64,000 nucleotides of DNA from the IMG/VR virus record IMGVR_UViG_3300026097_000980, positions 32,001-96,000 of that record; one strand, 5' to 3'. A program made the translations under genes and the position numbers. Origin of the DNA: a virus. Position 1 is the first letter of the stretch; every line of letters begins with the position of its first letter. The notes under the pieces were generated by a model that was not told the origin of the DNA, did not search any database, and saw only the letters and a program-made list of their open reading frames with translations. Below, one piece after another: positions 2,103 to 55,228 of the stretch.

Positions 2103-2420
2103 ATGTTTGGATTTTTAAAGAAACTTTTCGGTTCAGAAGAATCATCGCTCTATACTAAACCAGAAAGCGAAAGCAGGGTAGGCATTGACAAACCCAAAGT
2201 CACTCCTACCATTGAAGAACCAAAAGCAAAACCTGCACAGACAAAACAAGAACAGCCTAAAAAGCGTGGTCGTAAGAAAGCCGGTATTACAAAAACCGAT
2301 CTTAACAAAATGACCAAAGACGAGTTAGAAGCTTACGCTAAGAAGGAACATAAAGTTGATCTTGACAAGCGTAAGAAGAAGGCAGATCTTGTTGAGGAAG
2401 TGTTGAAGCTTGCGAAGTAA
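2103..2420 (+). CDS. Basic protein with C-terminal Rho_N/HeH-like helical domain
   Basis: DLNKMTKDELEAYAK...KKKADLVEEVL pattern; AAGGAG SD. Confidence 0.7.
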   Translation: MFGFLKKLFGSEESSLYTKPESESRVGIDKPKVTPTIEEPKAKPAQTKQEQPKKRGRKKAGITKTDLNKMTKDELEAYAKKEHKVDLDKRKKKADLVEEVLKLAK

Positions 2421-3432
2421 ATTCTTCGTAGAGCTTCGCGCTCGCTAAGTTTTTCATCTTTGCTTCCACCATAATGTCTGAGTATTCCCAAAACTCCTTT
2501 GCCCACGCATTACAGGCTGTATTCCACATATAGTCTGAGTGGGCACGGAGTTTTTGCTTTTTATATCCCCATTCTAACAGTTCTGACATATCTGGCTTTT
2601 TATCAGTAGGATGAAGATTAAGTAAATCTTCTCTGCTTAATGAGTAATGAATTACAGGACGAACACCGCGCCAGCTGTCTATTATACGCTTATATTGATC
2701 TGATTCGGGTGTAATGTAATGTCCTTCACGGACCCATTCATGATGTATATCCAGCACGAGGGCAAGGTCGTCGGCAAGTTCGAGGCTGGCGTCTGTTCCC
2801 CAGCACATTTCGTCGTTTTCGATTGTGATAATGTTTCGTGCTTCTGACGAGAGTCTTGGGAGGACTTCTTTGATACCTTGTGGCCCTTTTCTACCCGATA
2901 TGTGTACATTGCATTTAAAGTCTTGAAACGATCGACCGTAGCCCATCCATCGTGCCATATCAGCATGATATTCAAACTCCTCGATACTTCTATTTACTAT
3001 ATCTTCACTTTCGCTACTAAGTACAGTAAACTGACCAGGGTGAAAAGATAGACGCACGTCAAGATCGCGAGCAAGATCCCCAACCCTTGCAAACGCTCGT
3101 TCGCAATAGTCGCGCACGTCGCTACGCTTCCAAAAGTAGCTCCAACTGCGTTCAGTATAAACAGGAAGGCAATCACTCCCCAGCCGAACCATTCTAAGCC
3201 CATCGGGCAAACCTCCTACATATTCTATCAGATTGTAATAACTTTGAATGTTATGCTCCATCAACTCCCAAAGACGTTGTTCTGCATCTTCTTGAGTTTG
3301 ACGATTAAGCCATGCAACAGTTGTGCATCGAGTATTGAGTGGACGCTGAATTTCTTCTAGCACTTTCTTTTTCTGATCTTGATCAAGGTGCATGTATTTG
3401 CATGCAAAACCAATACGTTTTTTCATAGCCAT
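2338..3432 (-). CDS. uvsE: UV-damage endonuclease UvsE/UvdE
   Basis: RIGFACK, RLSFHPGQF, IENDE, LVLDIHH, RAHSDY, IMVEAKMK motifs. Confidence 0.93.
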   Translation of the reverse strand: MAMKKRIGFACKYMHLDQDQKKKVLEEIQRPLNTRCTTVAWLNRQTQEDAEQRLWELMEHNIQSYYNLIEYVGGLPDGLRMVRLGSDCLPVYTERSWSYFWKRSDVRDYCERAFARVGDLARDLDVRLSFHPGQFTVLSSESEDIVNRSIEEFEYHADMARWMGYGRSFQDFKCNVHISGRKGPQGIKEVLPRLSSEARNIITIENDEMCWGTDASLELADDLALVLDIHHEWVREGHYITPESDQYKRIIDSWRGVRPVIHYSLSREDLLNLHPTDKKPDMSELLEWGYKKQKLRAHSDYMWNTACNAWAKEFWEYSDIMVEAKMKNLASAKLYEEFTSQASTLPQQDLPSSYACQDQLYVPS

Positions 3433-3441
3433 AACATTAGT

Positions 3442-3993
3442 TTACATTGAAAAAACAGGGTTGTCAACATAACTAACCCCTATTCCTATTGTTTTTCTGC
3501 TACCGTTTACACTAAACCATCGATGTTCAGTATCGGAAGTATTACGCCAGCATATTAGTCTGTTATGTTTATACGGAAACGATAACGTTATTCCTTCGTT
3601 GTTTCTTGCTTCAAAGTAGCCACCGGGTTTCTGACCTAAGTAAAGCATCATATGATACTTTTTTTCAGGAAGATCGGTATGCCAATCTCTTGCCAGTCGC
3701 ATCTCGTGATCAACATAATCTCTAAATGCAATATGATTCAACCTTGTGGACTTTTCGTATTTGTCGTTAAAAATAATATCTAAAGTTGTAATCAGTTCTT
3801 TCTCTCGTTGAACGTAGTTTACATCGTAAAACTCTTTGAAAACACCATTAAGATCTGGATTTTTTAACTTTCCGCCTTTTACTGGAAAATTATCTCTCAT
3901 TGTGTCGGCTACTACTTGCGGAAGTACATTTTCTATAAGAATCATCGGCCACGGTAAATCAAATTTTGTGTAGGAGTTCTGTAAAATATACAT
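3442..3993 (-). CDS. 2OG-Fe(II) oxygenase family protein
   Basis: WHTD ... H ... RKT facial-triad pattern. Confidence 0.7.
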   Translation of the reverse strand: MYILQNSYTKFDLPWPMILIENVLPQVVADTMRDNFPVKGGKLKNPDLNGVFKEFYDVNYVQREKELITTLDIIFNDKYEKSTRLNHIAFRDYVDHEMRLARDWHTDLPEKKYHMMLYLGQKPGGYFEARNNEGITLSFPYKHNRLICWRNTSDTEHRWFSVNGSRKTIGIGVSYVDNPVFSM

Positions 3994-3994
3994 T

Positions 3995-4690
3995 TCAATG
4001 CCAGTTTTCGATTACAATTTTATCTTTAACTTCGTGTGGTTTAGGCTCACCGTGAAATACCAGTACAGCACAGTGTTTGTGTGGTTGGACATCATCTCTA
4101 ACAGTTTTAAAAGAACGTTTATTCGCTTTATACAGCAATTCACTGCGATCTCTAACTTCCCATTTGTAGCTCTGGATCCATTGATCCGGCCAAAAACAGA
4201 TTTGATTTTTTGCAACCTGCCATATCCAATCTTGATCTCCGTGTAATCTCTGTGCTTGTTTCTTGTCTCTTATAAAATTATCAAAGATATGGTTATGATG
4301 ACCAGCCATCCAGCTCATAATACTGCTATTGAGTACATTCCATTTAGGATTAAACTTTCGATTGAAATCGCGAATACCATAAAATCTGTCTCCGCAGTTG
4401 TCATAGAGTCTGGTAAGTGCTCCGACTATGACCACGTCCAGGTCAAAGTATAACATTCTACCTTCTAGACCTAGATTTTTATCAAATAAATGTACTTTAT
4501 GCCACCACGCTTTTTTATATTTTTGATTTTCTAAAATTAAAAGTTCAACACCTTCAATCGGAGTAGGATCGTCGGTAATACAATAAAATTTATACGGTCC
4601 GGTGATATTTCTCGAAACCATATTTCTTAATCGTTCTACATATTCTATACCGTATAACGATCCTATTCTAACACAGATAACATTTATCAT
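3995..4690 (-). CDS. Glycosyltransferase (GT-A fold)
   Basis: Start reassigned to MINVICV, coupled to the queD stop (TAATG); YFDLDVVI DxD, NSSIM, GDQDWI, VFHGEPKP. Confidence 0.85.
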   Translation of the reverse strand: MINVICVRIGSLYGIEYVERLRNMVSRNITGPYKFYCITDDPTPIEGVELLILENQKYKKAWWHKVHLFDKNLGLEGRMLYFDLDVVIVGALTRLYDNCGDRFYGIRDFNRKFNPKWNVLNSSIMSWMAGHHNHIFDNFIRDKKQAQRLHGDQDWIWQVAKNQICFWPDQWIQSYKWEVRDRSELLYKANKRSFKTVRDDVQPHKHCAVLVFHGEPKPHEVKDKIVIENWH

Positions 4691-5274
4691 TAAATTTGTA
4701 ATCTCTTTAATGCTTCTTCGGGTGCTTCCCAATCCCAACGAGATTTCATCGGAAGTGTTTGTTCACTTGGCATTTTACGTTGGGCATCGGTCTTAGCGGT
4801 GTCTTCATCTACTTCTACCATTGCATCGTTGCGTTCGTGCTCATACACGCGAACACGTTCTACATAACAGCGACCTTGTGTAAGTTTGTAGATATAATGA
4901 TTAACATGTTCCCAAATAAACAAACTGCTCATTTCCATACTTACTCCGCTAGGTAACACTCGAAGTGTTCCTAACAATCCTCCGGTGTCTGTTAGCGAAT
5001 CTGGAATATTATTTAATCTTGGATCATCTGCTGGTAATACAGTTACATGATCGAAGTAGTATTCCAAAAATTCTTTCACAGGCTTTAACCCGCCGAACGG
5101 AACAATCCATCCATGCTTGTCAATGTCGCCTGCGAATGTAAATTCCACTGAACGATCGTAACCGTGTACCTGAGCACAGTGTCCGGGTGTACCGTCTTCG
5201 TTTGTATCAAACCATTGTGCATGGCCACATGGTAAATTTTTAAATACTTTAGTTGCTTTTACTTTTATACCCAT
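4690..5274 (-). CDS. queD: 6-carboxy-5,6,7,8-tetrahydropterin synthase / PTPS
   Basis: CGHAQW, HCAQVHGY Zn motif, FGGLK, FDH, SMEMSS, VYEH. Confidence 0.88.
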   Translation of the reverse strand: MGIKVKATKVFKNLPCGHAQWFDTNEDGTPGHCAQVHGYDRSVEFTFAGDIDKHGWIVPFGGLKPVKEFLEYYFDHVTVLPADDPRLNNIPDSLTDTGGLLGTLRVLPSGVSMEMSSLFIWEHVNHYIYKLTQGRCYVERVRVYEHERNDAMVEVDEDTAKTDAQRKMPSEQTLPMKSRWDWEAPEEALKRLQI

Positions 5275-5345
5275 CTCTTGCCTCCTGGTGAGTAAGTTTG
5301 ACAGGCGGCAGAATATTTAATGAGGGATGACGCCTAAGACCTCTA
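5275..5345 (-). promoter_or_regulatory. Candidate preQ1-I-like riboswitch / translational switch in the queD 5' UTR
   Basis: AGAGG-UCUUAGGCGUCAUC-CCUC-AUUAAAUAUU-CUGCCGCCUG...CAGGAGGCA-AGAG-AUG: P1 stem, loop-tail pseudoknot and a competing SD-sequestering hairpin. Confidence 0.55.
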
Positions 5346-5350
5346 CGTTA

Positions 5351-5379
5351 ATTATAAAGCATATTTAACATATTTGCAA
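5351..5379 (-). promoter_or_regulatory. Sigma70-type promoter for queD
   Basis: TTGCAA-N17-TATAAT; predicted +1 near 5344. Confidence 0.75.
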
Positions 5380-31651: not shown

Positions 31652-32189
31652 CACTTCTCCATTTTTTATATCTTACATCGTTTATTTCATCTACAAATAT
31701 TAGAGGAATATCAAAATCCGCCTTCAAAATCCAATCTATAGTTTGCACAATTTTGATAGGATCTATTTTTACATCTTCTTCAGGCCCGTACCTTTGAAAT
31801 CCGCTGGTAATAATATGTGTGGTTTTAATTTTCTCTGAAGCAAGACTCCAACTGGTATTTCGTATGTCCAGTTTTTCTTGATGAGTTACAGGATCTACCC
31901 ACGCAAATTCTTCAAACTCTAATACACTGCCGATTGTTATGATATGCCCTTGCGTCCATACGTCAGCAACATCTCGTATTACTCGTTCTTGAAACCCATA
32001 TTCGATTTGGGCATGGTTGATAAACACATCGTAGTCTTGCACTTTATCTAAAAATTCAGCATAATCGGAATCTACAGTAAGGTCAAGATTTTGACTCTTG
32101 CTTACAAAATCAATATCGGAGTAGTATTCTGATAGACATCTAGCAATACCTCCGTGGCCGGGCCTACCAGTGCAGATTATTTTAGTCAT
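31644..32189 (-). CDS. Short Rossmann/SDR-like protein
   Basis: ICTGRPGHGGIA, DVFINHA, IITIGS. Confidence 0.65.
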   Translation of the reverse strand: MTKIICTGRPGHGGIARCLSEYYSDIDFVSKSQNLDLTVDSDYAEFLDKVQDYDVFINHAQIEYGFQERVIRDVADVWTQGHIITIGSVLEFEEFAWVDPVTHQEKLDIRNTSWSLASEKIKTTHIITSGFQRYGPEEDVKIDPIKIVQTIDWILKADFDIPLIFVDEINDVRYKKWRSVK

Positions 32190-46102: not shown

Positions 46103-46193
46103 TGGCAGAGATGGAGGGATTCGAACCCTCGGAACGCTATTAACGTTCACTCCCTTAGCAGGGGAGCGCCTTCAGCCACTCAGCCACATCTCT
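46103..46193 (-). tRNA. tRNA-Ser(GCT)
   Basis: Cloverleaf, CTCCC-CTGCTAA-GGGAG, long variable arm, GCCA end; own TTGACT/TATAAT promoter. Confidence 0.95.
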
Positions 46194-46233
46194 AATTTAT
46201 TTTATTATACACTAATTATTAAAAAAGTCAATA

Positions 46234-46941
46234 TCAAGTAGCACGACTGACCAACATATCACGAATATGTCCAATCGCCTTTGTGGGATTGAGTCCTTTA
46301 GGACACACACTCACACAGTTCATGATTCCTCTGCAACGGAACACTGAGAACGGATCATCCAGTTCGCTCAGTCGTTCTTCTGTGGCTGTGTCTCTGCTAT
46401 CAGCAAGATAGCGATATTGTGCTAACAGTGCTTGCGGTCCTAGGAACTTGTCTGGATTCCACCAAAAACTAGGACAACTTGTTGAACAACAAGCACACAT
46501 GATACACTCGTACAGTCCATCTAGCTTTGCTCGTTCTTCTGGAGATTGTAGTCGTTCTTGATTGGGTGTAGGCTCGTCGTTTTGTAGATAAGGTTTTACT
46601 TTTTGATACTGCTTATAGAACTGTGTCATATCAACCACTAGATCGCGAATAACAGGCAACCCAGGCAGTGGACGAATAACCAATCTACCTTTGCGATCTA
46701 CAACTTCACTCACAGGAGTAATACAGGCAAGTCCATTCTTGCCGTTCATATTAACACCGTCACTGCCACAAACACCTTCGCGGCAACTTCTACGATATGT
46801 AAAACTTTGATCCCGTTCTTTGATCATACCCATAACATCAAGCACCATGAGATCCTTGCCTTCAGGTAGATCAAACTCTACCTCTTGCATCCAAGGTACG
46901 TCGTCTGTTTCTGGATTATAACGATATAAACTTACTTTCAT
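46234..46941 (-). CDS. sdhB: Succinate dehydrogenase Fe-S subunit
   Basis: RRSCREGVCGSDG, ECIMCACCSTSCPS, RCRGIMNCVSVCPKGLNP. Confidence 0.97.
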   Translation of the reverse strand: MKVSLYRYNPETDDVPWMQEVEFDLPEGKDLMVLDVMGMIKERDQSFTYRRSCREGVCGSDGVNMNGKNGLACITPVSEVVDRKGRLVIRPLPGLPVIRDLVVDMTQFYKQYQKVKPYLQNDEPTPNQERLQSPEERAKLDGLYECIMCACCSTSCPSFWWNPDKFLGPQALLAQYRYLADSRDTATEERLSELDDPFSVFRCRGIMNCVSVCPKGLNPTKAIGHIRDMLVSRAT

Positions 46942-47102
46942 TTTAATCTACATCCTAACTTCCAAGTAGGCTGAATATCATTGTTTTCTTCAACCCAAGT
47001 TTTTGCCCATTTGCATTGCTCTTTATCTTTGTATACAAAGAGTTGTTCCTCGCCGTAATAGGGAGGAACCAGAGTAAGCCAAGAAACAAATAATACATAC
47101 AT
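46938..47102 (-). CDS. Small hypothetical protein
   Basis: ATGA overlap with sdhB; TAAATA just upstream. Confidence 0.55.
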   Translation of the reverse strand: MYVLFVSWLTLVPPYYGEEQLFVYKDKEQCKWAKTWVEENNDIQPTWKLGCRLK

Positions 47103-47110
47103 GTAAATAT

Positions 47111-47269
47111 TTACCAAAAGCCCAATACTCGACTGTTGCCTGTAATAATAGCAAGACAGGTGACGATATGTAATAGCACCCAACCTGTTCTTATAATAGC
47201 GACACGGTCTGCTTTATGATCTTCATCATAAGCCTTTTGACCTATGGCTTTGCACCAATATTCCCACAT
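47111..47269 (-). CDS. 52-aa membrane protein
   Basis: Manual translation MWEYWCKAIGQKA...ADRVAIIRT... Confidence 0.6.
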   Translation of the reverse strand: MWEYWCKAIGQKAYDEDHKADRVAIIRTGWVLLHIVTCLAIITGNSRVLGFW

Positions 47270-47275
47270 CGAATA

Positions 47276-47356
47276 TTAGTCTTGTCTACCAGTGTCTGCA
47301 ATAGCCATGACCAAAAAAACAGCAACCCATAGGCAAAATAGAGTAAACGGATCCAT
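47276..47356 (-). CDS. 26-aa single-TM peptide
   Basis: MDPFTLFCLWVAVFLVMAIADTGRQD; start coupled to the cytochrome stop. Confidence 0.4.
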   Translation of the reverse strand: MDPFTLFCLWVAVFLVMAIADTGRQD

Positions 47357-47775
47357 TATAATGTCTCCACATAGTTGCCAATGTCACGCATGTCTTGTTC
47401 AGTCATCCAACTGGCTTGACCCCACATCATTGCACTTTGCTGTCCGATGGTCTCGCCATTCTTGTATTTGGTAAGTTTTTCAACAATCTGATCACTGGTC
47501 TGACCTGCAAGTGTTGGACCAACGCCACCTTCACCTGCTTGACCGTGACAGGCGGCACACTGAACATAGTGTTTTGCACCCACAGCCACAGCAGGATCAA
47601 CTGCCGCTACTTTTACTGGCTCACCACTCTTCCAGGTTACTCCACAAAAGTAATCACCACGAGGACATTGTCCGTTATTAAATCCAATGTTACGATTCTC
47701 ACCGCCGCCCAAAAATGCAAACACACTTGCGGTTGCAACAAACATTAACACCATTCCGATTACTGCTTCTTTCAT
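47356..47775 (-). CDS. Membrane-anchored class I cytochrome c (c553/c4-like)
   Basis: N-terminal TM/signal, CAACHG heme motif, GPTLAGQ, distal Met in SAMM. Confidence 0.92.
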   Translation of the reverse strand: MKEAVIGMVLMFVATASVFAFLGGGENRNIGFNNGQCPRGDYFCGVTWKSGEPVKVAAVDPAVAVGAKHYVQCAACHGQAGEGGVGPTLAGQTSDQIVEKLTKYKNGETIGQQSAMMWGQASWMTEQDMRDIGNYVETL

Positions 47776-47927
47776 ATTCCTGCGTCCTTTTTATATACTT
47801 CTGCTTTTTCCATCAAGAAACTATACTGCTTGATGTCACCATTACGCTGTGCCTTTTGAGCGAGCTCTAGTGTTTCAAGATACTGCTTCTTGGCTTTTTC
47901 TTTAGGCGATTTAAATAGTCCGAACAT
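47772..47927 (-). CDS. 51-aa protein (DUF6435-like)
   Basis: Manual translation MFGLFKSPKEK...AQRNGDIKQYS. Confidence 0.6.
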   Translation of the reverse strand: MFGLFKSPKEKAKKQYLETLELAQKAQRNGDIKQYSFLMEKAEVYKKDAGI

Positions 47928-48090
47928 TATTTGTCCTTTCCTTTTTTATCTTCTATGTCAGAATATCCTGTGTCCCAATCCCAGTGACGTTTTGAGTCAA
48001 CTATATGCGGATGCTGAACACGGCGTTTACGATCTCGCAGTTTTTCTTCATCTGTTTTGAATAGGTCTGCGAGTAGATTGCGAAACTTGC

Positions 48091-48390
48091 TCACCCTTCT
48101 CGCTCTAAATCCCATTGAACTCGGTTAGGTGGTGCAGGAGGAGTTCTTGACTTCTCCTTGGTGAATACATAAAAAGTAAAGAACAAACAAGTAAGAAGCA
48201 CTGTGTGTCCAATAATATTGTATCCAATGAATAATAGTTCTGCTGTGTAGATACCAAATGCAATACACCACATTGCCGCAAGAATATTGCTTGCTAAGAA
48301 CTTGTATTCCATAGGACTGTTGCGCAGTCCATTCTTTGTAGCATCCAAAATGCCGTAAGCAAAAGTGCCCAAGTTAATCCAACCCATCAT
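48091..48390 (-). CDS. Small membrane protein
   Basis: Two hydrophobic segments; ATGA overlap. Confidence 0.7.
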   Translation of the reverse strand: MMGWINLGTFAYGILDATKNGLRNSPMEYKFLASNILAAMWCIAFGIYTAELLFIGYNIIGHTVLLTCLFFTFYVFTKEKSRTPPAPPNRVQWDLEREG

Positions 48391-49526
48391 TTTAAAATCT
48401 CCACGATTCTTTCTGCTAATTGTTTAAACCATTCAGCATCCCTGCCCCGTGTAGTCTCTGCGGCTGTGCCAATCCTAATACCACTTGTTTCTACAAAACT
48501 TCGTGGATCATTTGGTACACCGTTCTTGTTCACTGTGATGCCGTGCTCCTCCAGTAAGTCTGCGGCTTCACGACCTGAATGTTTACTTTCACTCAAGTCA
48601 AGTAATAGTATATGCGAATCCGTGCCTCCTGTCAACAGTTTAAAGCCATTATCTACAAATACTCGTGCCATTGCCTGTGCATTGTGTACAACACGACTTG
48701 CATAGTCAATAAACTCGTCTGTGTTTGCTTCTGCGAATGCCTGTGCCTTTGCCGCAACAATGTTCATCAACGGTCCGCCCTGTGTGCCTGGGAAGATAGC
48801 TGAGTTGATTTTCTTAGTAAAGAACTCGTCGTTCCAAAGAATGATGCCTCCTCGAGGCCCACGCAGAGTTTTGTGTGTTGTGCTTGTGACAACATCTGCA
48901 TAATCACAGGGATTAGGATATGCTTTACCAGCAATCAACCCACTGTAGTGTGCCATGTCTACCATGAAGATTGCACCTACTTGATCAGCAATGTGTCTAA
49001 ACTTTTCCCAGTCAATGCGTCTAGGATATGCACTTGCACCTGCAATAATCATAGCAGGTTCTACTTCCAGTGCTTGTTTCATAATAGCATCATAGTCCAG
49101 CCAACCTTCGTCGTCTACACCATAACTGTGTGCTTCAAACCATTTGCCACTTAGGTTGGCAGGAGATCCGTGTGACAGGTGTCCACCACTTGCCAAGTCC
49201 ATTCCTAGAATCTTATCACCAGGTTCCAAAAATGCTTTGAACACAGCTAGGTTTGCATTCGCGCCTGAATGCGGTTGAACATTGGCAAATTCACAGCCGT
49301 ATAGTTCTTTGAGTTCGTCAATGGCAAGTTGTTCAATTTCGTCCATGTGTTCGCAACCGTTGTAGTAACGCTTGCCTGGATAACCTTCAGCATACTTATT
49401 AGTGAATACACTGCCGCAAAGCATCATTACGTAGTCACTGGCAAAGTTTTCTGAAGCAATAAGCTCAACAGTATTTCTTTGTCTTTCGTCTTCTTTCTCT
49501 AATATATTAACTATTCTTTTATCCAT
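48387..49526 (-). CDS. glyA: Serine hydroxymethyltransferase
   Basis: LIASEN, NKYAEGYPGKRYY, GGHLSHG, TSTTHKTLRGPRGG (PLP Lys), SGIRIGT; start reassigned. Confidence 0.97.
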   Translation of the reverse strand: MDKRIVNILEKEDERQRNTVELIASENFASDYVMMLCGSVFTNKYAEGYPGKRYYNGCEHMDEIEQLAIDELKELYGCEFANVQPHSGANANLAVFKAFLEPGDKILGMDLASGGHLSHGSPANLSGKWFEAHSYGVDDEGWLDYDAIMKQALEVEPAMIIAGASAYPRRIDWEKFRHIADQVGAIFMVDMAHYSGLIAGKAYPNPCDYADVVTSTTHKTLRGPRGGIILWNDEFFTKKINSAIFPGTQGGPLMNIVAAKAQAFAEANTDEFIDYASRVVHNAQAMARVFVDNGFKLLTGGTDSHILLLDLSESKHSGREAADLLEEHGITVNKNGVPNDPRSFVETSGIRIGTAAETTRGRDAEWFKQLAERIVEILK

Positions 49527-49527
49527 T

Positions 49528-49737
49528 TTAAGATCCTGCTCGTAAGAAGATAGGCAACACAAAGATAAAGAAAACCAGCAACCAGAAGTTTAGATACAGC
49601 CTATCCAACTTGTCGCTCATTTTCTTGATGCGAAATACTTCACCTTCGATGTATTTCTGCAGGGTGGGATCATCCGTGGTCCGTCGTGCTACTTCCTTGG
49701 CTTCTTTTTCGTATTCTTCGTCTGTTTGACCGAACAT
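49528..49737 (-). CDS. Small membrane protein
   Basis: GAGG SD, C-terminal TM. Confidence 0.6.
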   Translation of the reverse strand: MFGQTDEEYEKEAKEVARRTTDDPTLQKYIEGEVFRIKKMSDKLDRLYLNFWLLVFFIFVLPIFLRAGS

Positions 49738-49753
49738 GATGTTTCCTCAAAAA

Positions 49754-49830
49754 TGGTACCGCTGAGTGGACTCGAACCACCACTGTATAGAACCTAAATC
49801 TATCGCCTCTACCAATTGGGCTACAGCGGC
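49754..49830 (-). tRNA. tRNA-Leu(TAG) with short variable loop
   Basis: 77-nt cloverleaf, ATAGA-TTTAGGT-TCTAT, ACCA end. Confidence 0.92.
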
Positions 49831-49860
49831 ATACTACTATTTAATTATCGGGCTATAAAC

Positions 49861-50085
49861 TTACAGGTCGCTCGAATCTTTTACAAACGGGCCTGCATCT
49901 AAAATGTTCATTACAGCATTGCTGTGATCAACTTCAAACATCAAATTTAGATGTTCAAACTCTTTGGTCTCCCAGTCCTCATTTGATTGAATACGCACAT
50001 CAGTGGCTCCAGCGGCTAATGCGGCTTGAAATGCTTCGGTTCCTGCTTTGATATCTTTTGTGTATACATCTACTGATACTTTCAT
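49861..50085 (-). CDS. Hypothetical protein
   Basis: AAGGA SD. Confidence 0.65.
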   Translation of the reverse strand: MKVSVDVYTKDIKAGTEAFQAALAAGATDVRIQSNEDWETKEFEHLNLMFEVDHSNAVMNILDAGPFVKDSSDL

Positions 50086-50107
50086 TAAGTTTTTCCTTTT
50101 ATTACAT

Positions 50108-50284
50108 TTATTTGAATAGGCTCTTGCCTACAGTTTTTTCAAGTTCTTCTAAACTTGTTAAGTCTTGCTGTTTCTCTAGTATAGCACGTTTTGGATTTAG
50201 GTTAAACCGTTCTTCGAACCAAAAGTTAATGGTGTCGAAAAAGTCCACGCACCAACGGAAGATCTTGCGTTTACGAATCTTCAT
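50108..50284 (-). CDS. 58-aa hypothetical protein
   Basis: Manual translation MKIRKRKIFRWCVDFF... Confidence 0.5.
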   Translation of the reverse strand: MKIRKRKIFRWCVDFFDTINFWFEERFNLNPKRAILEKQQDLTSLEELEKTVGKSLFK

Positions 50285-50353
50285 CACTTTGCACCGCTTT
50301 TACTAATGCATAGATTGATCCAATAATAATAAGAGCAATAATTAAATCATTCA

Positions 50354-50728
50354 TTAAAATAATTCCTTTTCGGTTAACACTTTAAACTCATATCCTTGCT
50401 GTTCACAGTATTCTTCAGCGGCCTTCCACTTGGCACGATTAACCTTGTACTTCTTTTGATAGTAGGGTTTAATCTCTACAATAATAACTCTACCATCCCT
50501 AGTGTTTACCATAAAATCAGGATAGTAGTTATGCCACTTTTCATCTTTGGGAGCAACATAGGGAATATGTAGTTCCTCTGAGCTCCATTTAAATATCTTA
50601 GGGCTACGATCGCAATACAGCATAAAACGCCTTTCCCAAAGACTGCGATAGGTAATCTTGTTTACGTTACCCGCATACTTCTCAGGATTCTGTGGACGAT
50701 ATCTACCACGTATTGCTGTTGGCTTCAC
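50354..50728 (-). CDS. T4 gp4-like head completion nuclease (TnsA-type PD-(D/E)xK)
   Basis: PQNPEKY, YRSLWER, WSSEE, YYPDF, VEIKP, KWKAA, LTEKEL. Confidence 0.88.
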   Translation of the reverse strand: MKPTAIRGRYRPQNPEKYAGNVNKITYRSLWERRFMLYCDRSPKIFKWSSEELHIPYVAPKDEKWHNYYPDFMVNTRDGRVIIVEIKPYYQKKYKVNRAKWKAAEEYCEQQGYEFKVLTEKELF

Positions 50729-50730
50729 TA

Positions 50731-51267
50731 TTACTTAACTCTCAATTCTTCAATGTTAATCGGAGTGTAGTCAATGTGCTCAACACAAACACATCTGTGA
50801 TGCTCTGTGGGACTGGGATTCTGGTGAATATGTCCGTGAACATTTAACAACTGCTCGCCTTCCTTGTTGTGGCGATAGCGAAACAATCCACTAGGATCCA
50901 AAGGAATGTGACTTAACAGTAATCCGTATTCGTGAAACTCTCTCCACACAACAACCTTGGTAACAAGTCCGTTCTGAATAAAGAACTTAGCATCATCGTG
51001 GTTGCCTAAGATAAGACGCTTGCTGCCGTTGAGCCTAGCCCATAAACTTCTAAATGTGTCTTTGTTACCAAAGAACACATCACCTAAGTGATACACTGTA
51101 TCGCCAGGCTTAACAACACGATTCCAGTTCTCGATCATTGTTTCGTCCATTTCTTCAACAGAGTCGAAACGATCTCCACGAACTAACTTACCTGTGTTTG
51201 AATCCACAAAGGTAAGGATGTTAGCGTGTTGAAAGTGTGTATCACTTATTAACCAGATGTCTTTCAC
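50731..51267 (-). CDS. Calcineurin-like metallophosphoesterase
   Basis: SDTHF, HLGD, GNHD, HGHIH. Confidence 0.92.
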   Translation of the reverse strand: MKDIWLISDTHFQHANILTFVDSNTGKLVRGDRFDSVEEMDETMIENWNRVVKPGDTVYHLGDVFFGNKDTFRSLWARLNGSKRLILGNHDDAKFFIQNGLVTKVVVWREFHEYGLLLSHIPLDPSGLFRYRHNKEGEQLLNVHGHIHQNPSPTEHHRCVCVEHIDYTPINIEELRVK

Positions 51268-51578
51268 AGTTCTACTATCTCTACCGCATCGCCGAAACGT
51301 TCTTTGAGTTGATTGTAAATGCCAGCATTGCTCATCCGCAATCCTTGATACTCTTTACGCAGATTATACACGCTTCCGCTGTCGGTTTCGACTGTGATAT
51401 AGTCTTGATCAATGTTGATGTTCATTTCTTTGATACGACTGCTCATACGCCATGAGTCACCATAAAGATAACCACCACTCCATCCTGACAGAATCTTTTG
51501 AAACTGTTCACCTTCGTGATTGACTTCAACAATCACCCAACTGTCTGGTGTAATTCCTTGTTCTGGTTCAAGTTTCAT
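51264..51578 (-). CDS. Conserved phage hypothetical protein
   Basis: GWSGGYLYGDSWRMSS motif. Confidence 0.7.
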   Translation of the reverse strand: MKLEPEQGITPDSWVIVEVNHEGEQFQKILSGWSGGYLYGDSWRMSSRIKEMNINIDQDYITVETDSGSVYNLRKEYQGLRMSNAGIYNQLKERFGDAVEIVEL

Positions 51579-51834
51579 AAAGATCATCATTCCCATTGGT
51601 GATGAAGATCTTCAGTGTGCGATCATCATCTTGGATGTCATGGTCCATGTACTCATTATCTTTGAAGTATCGAACATACTCACGTTTCTCTGGTCCAATC
51701 ACTTCGACGCGAGAAATCTTTGAGAACTTTCTTTCACGTTCTAACTCACCTACTCTCTTGAATAAGAACCACGCATACCCTTGAAGTTGCTCGTGATCCA
51801 TGTTCTTGATAGTTCCTGGCACTTTATCACTCAT
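51568..51834 (-). CDS. Hypothetical protein (RVEVI...QDDxRTLKIFI domain)
   Basis: Domain shared with 52294-52854. Confidence 0.65.
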   Translation of the reverse strand: MSDKVPGTIKNMDHEQLQGYAWFLFKRVGELERERKFSKISRVEVIGPEKREYVRYFKDNEYMDHDIQDDDRTLKIFITNGNDDLYET

Positions 51835-51989
51835 GTGTTTTTATCCTCCCTACGCTGTTTGCGAATCACTGCGATTGCTTGTTGAACGGTTTTTTCTGTG
51901 AGTTTACCTTCACCTGCAATCAAACGGATGTCCTGCATATCGATACCGTCTGCTGTTGGGATTTGTGTTTCCAGTTCTTTTGAACGCAT
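51831..51989 (-). CDS. 52-aa hypothetical protein
   Basis: AGGTG SD after a TTGACA-N17-TATACT promoter. Confidence 0.55.
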   Translation of the reverse strand: MRSKELETQIPTADGIDMQDIRLIAGEGKLTEKTVQQAIAVIRKQRREDKNT

Positions 51990-52088
51990 TTCACTCACCT
52001 TTCTAACTACTATATGTATAGTATACTGTCAGAGTTTGGCTGTGTCAACTGTTAAGCAAAACTTAATGGTTCAGTTGTTAAGCGCCGC

Positions 52089-52310
52089 TTAATAAGTGGG
52101 TGCGGAATAGTCTGTGGTTTTAGTGTATTCCGCAAACCCATCAGAACCATAGGCAGGACACACTAAGATTTTCTCAGGTAATCCCACGGCATCCTTGTCA
52201 CCTACTTCACCGCAGATAAAATATCGTCCACTCTGTTCAGGAACACTGTGCATCCAAATGTTTTTGAGTTTTTCAAACAGTTCGTATTCTTCGTCAGTTA
52301 TCGTTTTCAT
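52089..52310 (-). CDS. Hypothetical protein
   Basis: Start reassigned to MKTITDEE. Confidence 0.6.
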   Translation of the reverse strand: MKTITDEEYELFEKLKNIWMHSVPEQSGRYFICGEVGDKDAVGLPEKILVCPAYGSDGFAEYTKTTDYSAPTY

Positions 52311-52854
52311 CTTCTGGTTCCCAATCCGGTTCCCAATACTCGCATTCGCATACATAACGATCCATGGAGAGACTGGCATTTCGATCGAATCCGTGAGGTG
52401 CGTCAGGATGCGTTTTACAGGGCACTTCTTGTGTATTCTCGATACGATCCAGTTCATGGGTTGCTGTAAGAGTGTCAATAAAGATTTTCAGTGTGCGGTT
52501 GTCGTCCTGTAGGGCATAACGCACTCCCTCTCCATCCTTGAGATATTTTACATACCCGCGGCCAGTCTCGTCGATCACTTCAACTCGATTTACCTTATCG
52601 TAATCAATGCCTTCCAGTTTTGAACTTGCTTTAAACATTTCCATCTTCACAGTCTCCCAGAGTTCATCATGGATAAATTTTTTCTTTGAGCGTAGACGTT
52701 CTTCTTCAACGGCCCTAAACCACTCGTTGATATCGTCTTTCATCTCACCACAAGTGGCAGGGTCTTCTAATGCCGCACTTAACCACTTGCCTATTTTTTC
52801 GTCTGCGATTTCTTTATTGCTGGCATAAGGTAATTCTGATTTTGATTTAATCAT
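52294..52854 (-). CDS. Mosaic hypothetical protein
   Basis: Several small domains, ending CKTHPDAPHGF...CEC. Confidence 0.65.
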   Translation of the reverse strand: MIKSKSELPYASNKEIADEKIGKWLSAALEDPATCGEMKDDINEWFRAVEEERLRSKKKFIHDELWETVKMEMFKASSKLEGIDYDKVNRVEVIDETGRGYVKYLKDGEGVRYALQDDNRTLKIFIDTLTATHELDRIENTQEVPCKTHPDAPHGFDRNASLSMDRYVCECEYWEPDWEPEDENDN

Positions 52855-52856
52855 TT

Positions 52857-53324
52857 CTAGTTCCTTGTGCAATCTAGTTTGTGAATATGCTTTTTTGTTT
52901 TGCGTAAGTCTGTGACCAGCCCGCACTCATAACACTTATACCAAGTGTCGTCTGCCCAACGAATCTTTGTACCACTGTCTTTTTCATACTGAGCAACGAG
53001 GTCATCAAACTCCCACAGTTCTTCAGTAGGGTATTCTTCCAACCAATCACCAAAGTCGTTCCAATCTTCACCGTGCATTATGGGCAAACTGTATTCATGC
53101 CAACCGTTCCAATACTCGTCACCAGGAACACCACGAATATCAATACGCCCACCTGCATAGTATGTGGTGACTACCTCGTATTCCCACACATCACCTGGAC
53201 CAAGACCTTTGGGATAAATCGTTTTACCTTCTTCGAGAACTTCTCTAACTTTTTTAGTTAGTCCTCGTTCGCGAAACCATTCCATATTAACAGGACCCAT
53301 CATGTTGGTGCTGTATGTAATCAT
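52857..53324 (-). CDS. Hypothetical protein
   Basis: Coupled ORF; C-terminal CxxC..H..C. Confidence 0.65.
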   Translation of the reverse strand: MITYSTNMMGPVNMEWFRERGLTKKVREVLEEGKTIYPKGLGPGDVWEYEVVTTYYAGGRIDIRGVPGDEYWNGWHEYSLPIMHGEDWNDFGDWLEEYPTEELWEFDDLVAQYEKDSGTKIRWADDTWYKCYECGLVTDLRKTKKHIHKLDCTRN

Positions 53325-53626
53325 TAACTTTTCTTTCTTTTAGGCTTGTTGTTAGCAATCAAGTCGTGTCCTGAAATGTCAGCACTCATACCTGTTTCAC
53401 CTTGCGCGATCTTTTTCAATCTATACTTGTCAAGGGTTCGATCACTTTCAATGAGCGTCCTCACAGCCGCAAGTTCAAGATCACGTTCTTCGTTGCCTGC
53501 TCGGGTCTGCTGGCTAAGCACAATTTCATACATTCTGTATTTGTCTGGTGTGCTTAGACTCTTCAGCATTTCCCTTGCTTCTTTGTCATAATTGCGATCG
53601 TTAGTCGTTCCGAATCTCTGCATCAT
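53324..53626 (-). CDS. Hypothetical protein
   Basis: Operonic overlap. Confidence 0.6.
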   Translation of the reverse strand: MMQRFGTTNDRNYDKEAREMLKSLSTPDKYRMYEIVLSQQTRAGNEERDLELAAVRTLIESDRTLDKYRLKKIAQGETGMSADISGHDLIANNKPKRKKS

Positions 53627-53822
53627 CCGCCTCCACAGCAGGTTGAGGTGCGTTATATACCACGCCCAGTTTGATTTTTCGTGCTAATGCTTTTGCATAG
53701 CGATCTCGCTTCTTTCCTGATGCTGACTCTAGTTTTGCTGTTAACTGCTTGAGAGTCAGTGGACCTAATCGTTCTTTTCCGCTTCTGGTCATCAGTGGTG
53801 TTCTTTTTCCTGTTTTCTGCAT
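53601..53822 (-). CDS. Small basic protein
   Basis: GAGG SD. Confidence 0.65.
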   Translation of the reverse strand: MQKTGKRTPLMTRSGKERLGPLTLKQLTAKLESASGKKRDRYAKALARKIKLGVVYNAPQPAVEADDAEIRND

Positions 53823-53836
53823 TTTTACCTCTTTTG

Positions 53837-54490
53837 TTAAAATTCAATCCATGTAGCCATTAAGTATTTGACATTGCTTCTGGGCGGATTACCCCTATGC
53901 GTATGTGTATAGTTTCCTGGATAAATTAGAAGAGTTCCTTCTACCGCAGTTTCGGCTTTGTTATGATATAAAAACTCTGTCTCTCCACCATCTTTTACTG
54001 TGTTAAGGTATAGGGTAACATTCATAAACCTATTACACTCTGCTCTACCCGATTGCTCCCAGTGCCATACATGAAATCCTCCGCCGATATCTGTTCTTTG
54101 AATTTGTACTTCGTTAATGTGTTGCGGGTGGAACTGTCTAGTATCTACTAAACTATACCGGTCTGCATACTGATTATAGCATTCCCACACTGTTTCGATG
54201 AACGTTTTCTGTATGGCTGGAACTCCGACTACACCCATTGTATGTACCGAGTTACTGATCAGATCAGATGTATAAAATAGTTGATTATCTTTAATGTGTT
54301 TCGGAACTTTGTCATTTTGTTGCCGAGATTTTCCAAATCCCATTTTATCCATTTGTTCGAAATATTGAATTGCGCTTCTGCAGTAACTAGGACTGAACGC
54401 TCCTTCAAATCTACCGATAAAATTATCAATTTCAACTTTACAATTTTGCAACAGTATCTCCTTACAGCTTCGAATCAATGAACTTCGCAC
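53837..54490 (-). CDS. 2OG-Fe(II) oxygenase (prolyl-hydroxylase-like)
   Basis: GGFHVWHWE, YLNTVKDGGETEF, THTHRGNPP, KY; TTGACA-N17-TACTAT upstream. Confidence 0.9.
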   Translation of the reverse strand: MRSSLIRSCKEILLQNCKVEIDNFIGRFEGAFSPSYCRSAIQYFEQMDKMGFGKSRQQNDKVPKHIKDNQLFYTSDLISNSVHTMGVVGVPAIQKTFIETVWECYNQYADRYSLVDTRQFHPQHINEVQIQRTDIGGGFHVWHWEQSGRAECNRFMNVTLYLNTVKDGGETEFLYHNKAETAVEGTLLIYPGNYTHTHRGNPPRSNVKYLMATWIEF

Positions 54491-54532
54491 TAATTAATAG
54501 TAACAAAAGAATATGCCCTTGTCAACCTAAAA

Positions 54533-54608
54533 TGGAGTGAGGGACGAGATTCGAACTCGCGTAAAACAGATTTGCAGTCTGGTGCCTAACCAATTCAGCC
54601 ACCCTCAC
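54533..54608 (-). tRNA. tRNA-Cys(GCA)
   Basis: Cloverleaf, CT-GCA-AA, U73, CCA. Confidence 0.93.
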
Positions 54609-54612
54609 AAAG

Positions 54613-54688
54613 TGGAGCGGATAGGGAGAATCGAACTCCACTCTCTACGGCTTGGAAGGCCGAGGACACAACCCGTGTGCTTACCCGC
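54613..54688 (-). tRNA. tRNA-Gly(TCC), atypical D arm
   Basis: CT-TCC-AA, U73, CCA; A at position 8 and a short D loop. Confidence 0.88.
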
Positions 54689-54739
54689 ATTGTAAAAAAC
54701 CCTTGGCAGAGTCTATGACATCACCCAAAGGCCGTGTTA

Positions 54740-54815
54740 TGGTGCAACCTCCAGGGATCGAACCTGGTTCTTCGGAACTTCAACCCGACGTGAGGACCAC
54801 CTTCACCAAAGTTGC
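54740..54815 (-). tRNA. tRNA-Phe(GAA)
   Basis: TCGGG-TTGAAGT-TCCGA, ACCA. Confidence 0.9.
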
Positions 54816-54819
54816 AATA

Positions 54820-54903
54820 TGGTGGAGAGTGTTGGATTCGAACCAACGCGATGTTACTGCCAGATTTACAGTCTAGTGCTTTCGACCACTCAGCCAACTC
54901 TCC
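54820..54903 (-). tRNA. tRNA-Tyr(GTA)
   Basis: CT-GTA-AA, extended variable region, ACCA. Confidence 0.93.
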
Positions 54904-54909
54904 TCTTAA

Positions 54910-54983
54910 TGGCACCGGATGAAGGAATCGAACCTCCAGTAAGAGATTTGGAGTCTCCTGTGTTTCCATTACACCAATCCGGC
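54910..54983 (-). tRNA. tRNA-Trp(CCA)
   Basis: CT-CCA-AA, G73, CCA. Confidence 0.93.
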
Positions 54984-54989
54984 TTTATA

Positions 54990-55065
54990 TGGTCAGGATA
55001 GATGGATTCGAACCACCGTCTCCGCGCCCCAAACGCGGTGCTAAACCAACCTCAGCTATACCCTG
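54990..55065 (-). tRNA. tRNA-Pro(TGG)
   Basis: CCGCG-TTTGGGG-CGCGG, C1-G72, ACCA. Confidence 0.94.
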
Positions 55066-55070
55066 TAAAA

Positions 55071-55145
55071 TGGCTCCCGGTGTTGGAATCGAACCAACCA
55101 ATGACGGATTAACAGTCCGCTCCCCCACCTTGGGGGCAACCGGGA
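55071..55145 (-). tRNA. tRNA-Asn(GTT)
   Basis: CT-GTT-AA, U1-A72, G73, CCA; atypical D arm. Confidence 0.9.
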
Positions 55146-55152
55146 ATAAAAA

Positions 55153-55228
55153 TTAGCACGGTAGGACTCGAACCTACACCACCCAAACAAAAACTGCCAG
55201 GCGTTCTACCAGTTAAACTAAATGCCAA
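55153..55228 (-). pseudogene. Degenerate tRNA / tRNA-like RNA
   Basis: Good D arm (GTTT-AACTGGTA-GAAC) and T arm (GTAGG-TTCGAGT-CCTAC); irregular GU-rich anticodon arm, no CCA. Confidence 0.7.

Follow-up and report, generated by a model that had tools for sequence, protein, structure and literature searches.

A conserved pseudoknot in the leaders of phage queD/PTPS genes: a candidate ON riboswitch with a preQ1-I-like fold

The locus described here belongs to a 64,000-nt window, by which is meant the whole stretch of DNA analysed, taken from a 155-kb virus record (IMG/VR record IMGVR_UViG_3300026097_000980, positions 32,001 to 96,000). A queD-like gene of the PTPS family is preceded by a 240-aa ORF, and the 77-nt gap between the two encodes an H-type pseudoknot (Table 1). 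An earlier note, made from the sequence alone, had read a TTGCAA-N17-TATAAT promoter upstream of the pseudoknot; the promoter is present, with its -10 box overlapping the stop codon of the 240-aa ORF, and promoter-like sites as such are not commoner in the region than in shuffles (26 vs 21.8). The probable start of transcription lies a few bases ahead of P1, the first helix of the pseudoknot. At the other end of the leader the bases CAAGAG lie between the SD AGGAGG and the queD AUG. The queD gene overlaps a glycosyltransferase-like gene, behind which come a 183-aa ORF that weakly matches 2OG-Fe(II) oxygenase (E 0.0011) and endonuclease V (E 1.5e-4), and then UvdE. These four genes may be co-translated behind the proposed switch.

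Table 1. Coordinates of the queD leader, its parts and other features of the window
Feature	Position in window	Strand	Remarks
queD-like gene, PTPS family, 194 aa	4690-5274	(-)	Pfam PF01242, E 2.2e-15; phrog_2389
queD start codon AUG	5274-5272	(-)	
Stop codon TAA of upstream 240-aa ORF	5354-5352	(-)	
Sigma-70-like promoter	5351-5379	(-)	TTGCAA 5379-5374, 17-nt spacer, TATAAT 5356-5351; 10/12 matches
H-type pseudoknot	5343-5302	(-)	3' end 28 nt before queD start
P1 5' strand GAGG	5340-5343	(-)	alignment A2; middle pair covaries
L1 UCUU	5336-5339	(-)	alignment A2, loop statistics; family consensus N-C-U + 0-6 nt
P2 5' strand AGGCG-U-CA = AGGCGUCA	5328-5335	(-)	U opposite C = conserved mismatch/bulge
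L2 U-C	5326-5327	(-)	C5326 = near-invariant unpaired C at P1/P2 junction, putative ligand-pairing base
P1 3' strand CCUC	5322-5325	(-)	alignment A2, covariation
L3 tail AUUAAAUAUUC	5311-5321	(-)	A-rich; three A positions, U and C invariant
P2 3' strand UG-C-CGCCU(G)	5302-5310	(-)	also 5' arm of alternative, SD-covering helix
UGCCGCCU, then G	5310-5303, G at 5302	(-)	P2 3' strand as read 5' to 3' on the RNA
Conserved linker UCAAACUUACUCA (CC follows)	5289-5301	(-)	common to 70/172 copies
CAGGAGGCA, containing SD AGGAGG (5286-5281)	5279-5287	(-)	3' arm of alternative helix
Covariance-model match	5300-5346	(-)	model R1, 50.2 bits, E 2.3e-9
Stretch with the glycosyltransferase-like gene and the ORF behind it	3442-4738	(-)	phrog_1962, E 2.5e-27
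UvdE	2338-3432		behind 183-aa ORF
tRNA genes	46106-55227	(-)	eight, six clustered at 54.5-55.2 kb (Rfam tRNA)

The strands of the pseudoknot follow one another in the order P1, L1, P2 5' strand, L2 (N-C), P1 3' strand, A-rich L3 and P2 3' strand. Pairing of GAGG with CCUC as P1 had been recognised from the single sequence and is present, with covariation in relatives. For P2, the earlier note had paired the loop AGGCG (5335-5331) with the downstream CGCCU (5307-5303); this pairing is there, but P2 is longer than five pairs, with 7 pairs across 8 positions (AGGCG-U-CA with UG-C-CGCCU) and a conserved U/C mismatch or U bulge inside. Beyond the mismatch the extension consists, in the window, of C5329-G5309 and A5328-U5310. 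In the register of the family, the loop vvvvv-U-C-R faces the tail Y-G-C-vvvvv; the family aptamer has a P1 of 4-6 bp, an L1 of N-C-U plus more, a 2-nt L2 and an 11-nt, A-rich L3. Taken alone, the window is unremarkable in its fold energy (minimum-free-energy z -0.83), and it is by comparison with relatives that a conserved H-type pseudoknot in a phage queD/PTPS leader, as first proposed, proves to be real.

Relatives were collected by two DNA pattern scans of viral contigs, in which the unpaired bases and the P1 3' strand were fixed. A matching P1 5' strand accompanies 180 of the 239 pattern matches listed, and a stricter parse of the matches gave at least 176 distinct copies in viral contigs. 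Among the matches listed, the loop R (TC-R) and the tail Y (TC-Y-G) always pair, as A-U in 123 and as G-C in 53; R at 5328 covaries perfectly with Y at 5310 across copies. This covariation was not imposed by the search, because the pattern left the purine position free, and from the exceptionless pair it follows that P2 continues past the five pairs of the first reading. The middle pair of P1, again among the matches listed, is A-U in 116, U-A in 92 and C-G in 2, with 4 non-pairs. Positions of P2 pair with their own partners, in a fixed register, in 69-96% of the matches listed (80-96% for the four pairs nearest the mismatch); given partners from other copies, about 45-60% of them are paired. 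As for the loops, the first triplet among the matches listed is ACU in 120, UCU in 34 and CCU in 14, about two thirds of the copies have A as first loop base, and N in the L2 motif N-C is U in 84, A in 60 and C in 32.

In an alignment of 149 distinct aptamers (alignment A2), paired cells make up 93.1%, against 72.0% in shuffles, and the covariation score, 0.554 vs 0.168, is reached by none of 500 shuffles. The signal collapses when the 3' partners are slid. Compensatory changes are found in six of the seven P2 pairs, and the UTRs of queD homologues carry the covariation that the earlier note had looked to for confirmation. P1 is 97.4% paired, with covariation, and the tail has three invariant A positions. 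As the copies are phylogenetically related, p-values overstate their independence.

Sets of leaders seeded with the protein, which are unbiased for the RNA, confirm the invariant positions, the junction C among them, and add a third P1 class, GCGG/CCGC. In this class the tail reads AAUAUAAAYUC in place of UNUAAANAYUC (leaders L384, L389, L391, L410, L014 and L020), and the joint change of P1 and L3 fits contacts of the tail with the minor groove of P1. In L402, a further relative from a protein-seeded set, the P1 pair next to the middle one is swapped from G-C to C-G. The junction C is replaced by U at L461:1968-2003, L462:7421-7456 and L463:6770-6805, which come from different samples and read UCAC-U-CCAC, still upstream of QueD. 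A dedicated scan gave one distinct U variant only at this position, for the GUGG class; the change to U may mark an altered specificity or a copy in decay. That the leader contains a conserved structured RNA is virtually certain.

The element is closely tied to one kind of gene. Among the matches listed, 172 of the 176 copies sit 19-46 nt upstream of a PTPS/QueD ORF, and the four exceptions comprise a locus that is truncated, a match by chance and a QueD whose SD is weak, the last counted twice. All ten divergent representatives of the downstream proteins match PF01242; their identity falls to 26-30% between groups, while more than 15 positions of the RNA are still invariant. A search seeded with the QueD of the window gave 39 viral loci, about 30 of them with the same leader. 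In the protein-seeded sets the motif is found with 79 of 80 homologues of one QueD group and 29 of 80 of another; in the remaining homologues queD is translationally coupled to the upstream gene or has a promoter directly before the SD. Among the matches listed, 80 of the 172 copies have a promoter of at least 10/12 within 60 nt upstream, whereas 4 of 173 shuffles do, and its -10 box ends mostly 7-17 nt (range 7-29) before P1.

Searches with model R1 found a single copy in the window and in the whole 155-kb record, and three complete records (208-382 kb) also gave one apiece; the motif occurs once per genome and, in essence, in phages only. A specific pattern run on 185,579 bacterial and archaeal genomes gave five matches, two of them chance, and the three remaining matches, all in bacterial bins, are probably phage contigs binned with bacterial genomes. 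Perfect motif copies occur on two contigs of 'Rickettsiales' marine metagenome bin MED657 (L289:2019-2070 and L292:4926-4977) and on a 4-kb contig of a Nitrospira bin (L293:2788-2833). No match to cultured phages was obtained by blastn of the region, and the motif is absent from the nearest cultured QueD homologues, those of Pseudomonas phage pf16 and Rhizobium phage RHph_I1_18 (58% identity), in both of which queD is translationally coupled to the upstream gene. Openly searchable full text yielded nothing relevant on a phage riboswitch for queD, on a fourth class of preQ1 riboswitch or on a motif of queD/PTPS genes. A cis-regulatory element specific to phage PTPS/queD genes is very strongly indicated.

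Information about the pathway can be garnered from 33 long motif-bearing viral records (G001-G033) surveyed for their genes. The carriers are mostly fragments of very large phages, with pieces of 60-100 kb rated 15-30% complete by CheckV. FolE is present in 18 of the 33, including all 3 that CheckV rates complete, and in two complete records folE follows on the same strand at a distance of up to 3 kb. None of the 33 has TGT/DpdA, and QueC is essentially absent from them: short partial matches came from four records, two of them just reaching the cut-off and none covering the family. The classical phage preQ0/DpdA DNA-modification set is therefore not carried. In the 155-kb record of the window, QueC, FolE and TGT/DpdA were all sought and none was found. 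The context in one carrier comprises IMPDH, FolE, PTPS, a phosphoribosyltransferase and a radical-SAM gene; one carrier has a lone PTPS among T4-like baseplate genes.

An alternative helix that buries the SD had been described together with the pseudoknot. This helix, of UGCCGCCUG (5310-5302) with CAGGAGGCA (5287-5279), is part of the minimum-free-energy fold, where it is extended by UCU/AGA and by CUCAUU/GAUGGG over the start codon. The two folds are mutually exclusive, as was claimed, in that the pseudoknot and the helix sequestering the ribosome-binding site (RBS) use the same strand. Two such folds, a conserved structured leader and a gene of a single pathway are together the general mark of a riboswitch, and all are found here. 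Across the family, the P2 3' strand and a few flanking bases are complementary to the SD and/or the start codon. The pairs in relatives include AAGUCAUC with GAUGACUU, GCCAUUG or GUCAUUG with CAAUGGC, GUCUAUUU with AAAUAGAU, GUCUUCU with AGGAGAC, ACUCC with GGAGU (the ACUCC standing just after P2, or else in the tail itself) and CCUC with GAGG. The pairs differ from lineage to lineage and the same rule recurs.

Complementarity to the RBS is higher for the P2 3' zone than for shuffles of that zone (mean z -1.73, t = -15), with p at or below 0.05 in 80% of one group. In the group with Y=C, the SD pairs with the tail/P2 zone with a probability of 0.68, against 0.44 in shuffles, and RNAalifold on 65 leaders of the window's subgroup gives CAUC/GAUG over the start codon, with the end variants U-G, C-G and U-A. 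A cruder whole-leader test was negative, the SD being no more sequestered with the natural aptamer (0.40) than with shuffled ones (0.36, p = 0.19), and in two of three groups pairing of the SD core by itself with the P2 zone falls below the level of shuffles. For the ON signal to emerge, the start-codon region has to be taken in or the groups have to be treated one by one. Accessibility of the SD rose in a constrained 'bound' fold, a gain that is partly trivial. Because the same bases cannot join both helices, a stabilised pseudoknot would free the RBS and so act as an ON switch. This is the geometry that the earlier note had favoured; comparative analysis across many lineages points the same way and makes ON logic moderately probable.

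Between the two arms of the alternative helix, the linker UCAAACUU(A/G)CUCA is near-invariant in 70 of 172 leaders, and the spacer after it varies freely, among the matches listed. The A/G change in the linker tracks GGCAAGAG vs GACUAGAG before the AUG. A pairing partner for the linker UCAAACUUACUCA was sought by hand and with RNAalifold, and none was convincing. A reading of the TATAAATA-like tail as a late promoter was considered and rejected, because the tail varies (CUCUAAAUAC, CUUAAAACAU and others) and a T4-type late promoter would not tolerate such variation.

The closest known family is preQ1-I (Rfam RF00522, types I-III; B. subtilis queC, T. tengcongensis, E. coli). Both are H-type pseudoknots of about 35-45 nt in the leader of a queuosine-pathway gene, with P2 formed by loop and 3' tail. 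In both, an invariant G-C pair closes a short P1, the base directly preceding the P1 3' strand is an invariant, unpaired C, and L3 is A-rich and so placed that it could lie in the minor groove of P1. Of the preQ1-I layout seen in the single sequence, the short G-C-rich P1, the invariant C before the P1 3' strand and the A-rich tail stand, whereas the loop-initial U is not conserved. In preQ1-I the specificity cytosine at the P1/P2 junction pairs with the ligand, P2 has 3-4 pairs, L2 has 4-6 nt and a conserved U (U6 or UU) starts L1 (PMC11625349). The phage motif, in contrast, has a P2 of 7 pairs with the conserved U/C mismatch, an L2 of 2 nt with one base between P2 and the C, an L1 of N-C-U plus more without a conserved U/UU, and an invariant U-C in the tail before P2. 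Its SD is not within P2 but 16-35 nt downstream, where it vies with the P2 5' strand for pairing with the P2 3' strand. Regulation is predicted to be ON, whereas all known preQ1 classes are OFF (in preQ1-I by an SD in P2 or a terminator), and the motif occurs in phages only, in carriers without TGT and with QueC essentially absent. The Rfam PreQ1 model, which the earlier note had named as a check, does not detect the element as a member, giving 8.4 bits against a gathering cut-off of 39 (E 7.5, model positions 6-32 only, window 5316-5344(-)), and five unrelated sites in the window's record score higher. Rfam searches gave no relevant family on the window, at gathering and at E up to 10, nor on ten further motif loci (nine with the whole aptamer). 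The motif would work in the way of a preQ1-I aptamer but lacks several defining features, and it is not filed as a preQ1-I member.

Likeness to the other preQ1 classes is more general. Both preQ1-II and preQ1-III are pseudoknotted and linked to queuosine genes, and in preQ1-III the expression platform is separate from the pocket (PMC11625349). They are unlike the phage motif in being HLout pseudoknots of about 80-100 nt with 4-5 helices, queT-associated and OFF, and neither gave an Rfam match here. Guanidine-III (mini-ykkC) is a small H-type pseudoknot aptamer thought to be ON when the ligand stabilises the pseudoknot; it has no sequence similarity to the phage motif, and its ligand pocket, its efflux/carboxylase genes and its bacterial distribution are different.

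The explanation favoured, and with reasonable confidence, is a cis-regulatory RNA particular to phages: most probably a riboswitch for a small molecule, whose aptamer is an H-type pseudoknot like that of preQ1-I and which would activate translation of queD and the genes coupled behind it. An ordinary preQ1-I member, binding preQ1 and repressing queD as feedback, would share with it the closing G-C of P1, the junction C, the A-rich tail and the queuosine-pathway gene downstream, but is very unlikely in view of the Rfam score and the five higher-scoring sites, the lack of an Rfam match at the ten further loci, a P2 of 8 positions rather than 3-4 and an L2 of 2 nt rather than 4-6, a first L1 base that is not a conserved U, carriers without TGT/DpdA and with QueC essentially absent, and an SD whose competition with P2 for the same strand predicts ON, not OFF. 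Chance resemblance is practically negligible: the single-sequence statistics of fold and promoter are weak, as chance would have them, but there are at least 176 distinct copies with compensatory changes, a covariation reached in none of 500 shuffles, and the protein-seeded sets with the motif in 79/80 and 29/80 homologues.

A translational operator is improbable; in that case the pseudoknot would be bound by QueD itself or by an RNA-binding protein of phage or host, and would sense no small molecule. Translational repressors and operators are in use by phages of this kind, and pseudoknots are known as protein operators. The unpaired bases, however, are invariant while the PTPS proteins diverge to 26-30% identity, which speaks against a co-evolving protein regulating its own gene; there is one motif per genome and, among the matches listed, it stands only before PTPS genes, unlike a general repressor site; and the junction with its unpaired invariant C mimics a known ligand pocket. 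Highly improbable is a constitutive structural element without switching, serving mRNA stability or a fixed translation level or responding to temperature/Mg2+ only. Small pseudoknots can be stability or standby-site elements and the fold energetics of the window are unremarkable, but complementarity of the P2 3' strand to the RBS is kept via many sequence solutions, which is hard to explain unless two alternative states exist, and the strict tie to one enzyme family points to a pathway-specific signal. One point against the favoured riboswitch itself is that riboswitches sensing a product seldom switch a biosynthetic gene ON.

A metabolite riboswitch is likely, and its action could be as follows. 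Without ligand, the P2 3' strand would pair with the RBS and block initiation. A planar ligand, stacking between the two helices in the manner of preQ1 in class I aptamers, would pair with the junction C and lock P2, so that the RBS is released and translation is turned on. The invariant junction C suggests a guanine-like, 7-deazaguanine or pterin ligand. Candidates with a guanine face from the GTP-to-7-deazaguanine or pterin route would be preQ1, preQ0, CDG and guanine, and further ones 7,8-dihydroneopterin triphosphate or its pterin core. That the ligand is preQ1 itself seems rather unlikely, and the caution of the earlier note on this point fits the carriers, in which QueC is essentially absent, TGT/DpdA is lacking and FolE is common. 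Tentatively, the element could be a new phage-only class of ON riboswitch with a preQ1-I-like fold, sensing not preQ1 but an upstream guanine-faced intermediate of the FolE-QueD route (for instance 7,8-dihydroneopterin triphosphate, a different pterin, CDG or preQ0) and exerting feed-forward control over a pterin/7-deazapurine pathway without QueC and DpdA.

Should a metabolite bind to this RNA, the element would be among very few riboswitches confined to viruses and the first ON-type relative of the preQ1-I fold. At about 45 nt and rich in sequence variants, the aptamer is simple to test. The motif marks a widespread, uncharacterised pathway of large uncultured phages, comprising FolE and a PTPS/QueD-like enzyme without DpdA and with QueC essentially absent, and the identity of the ligand would tell what the carrier phages make from GTP.
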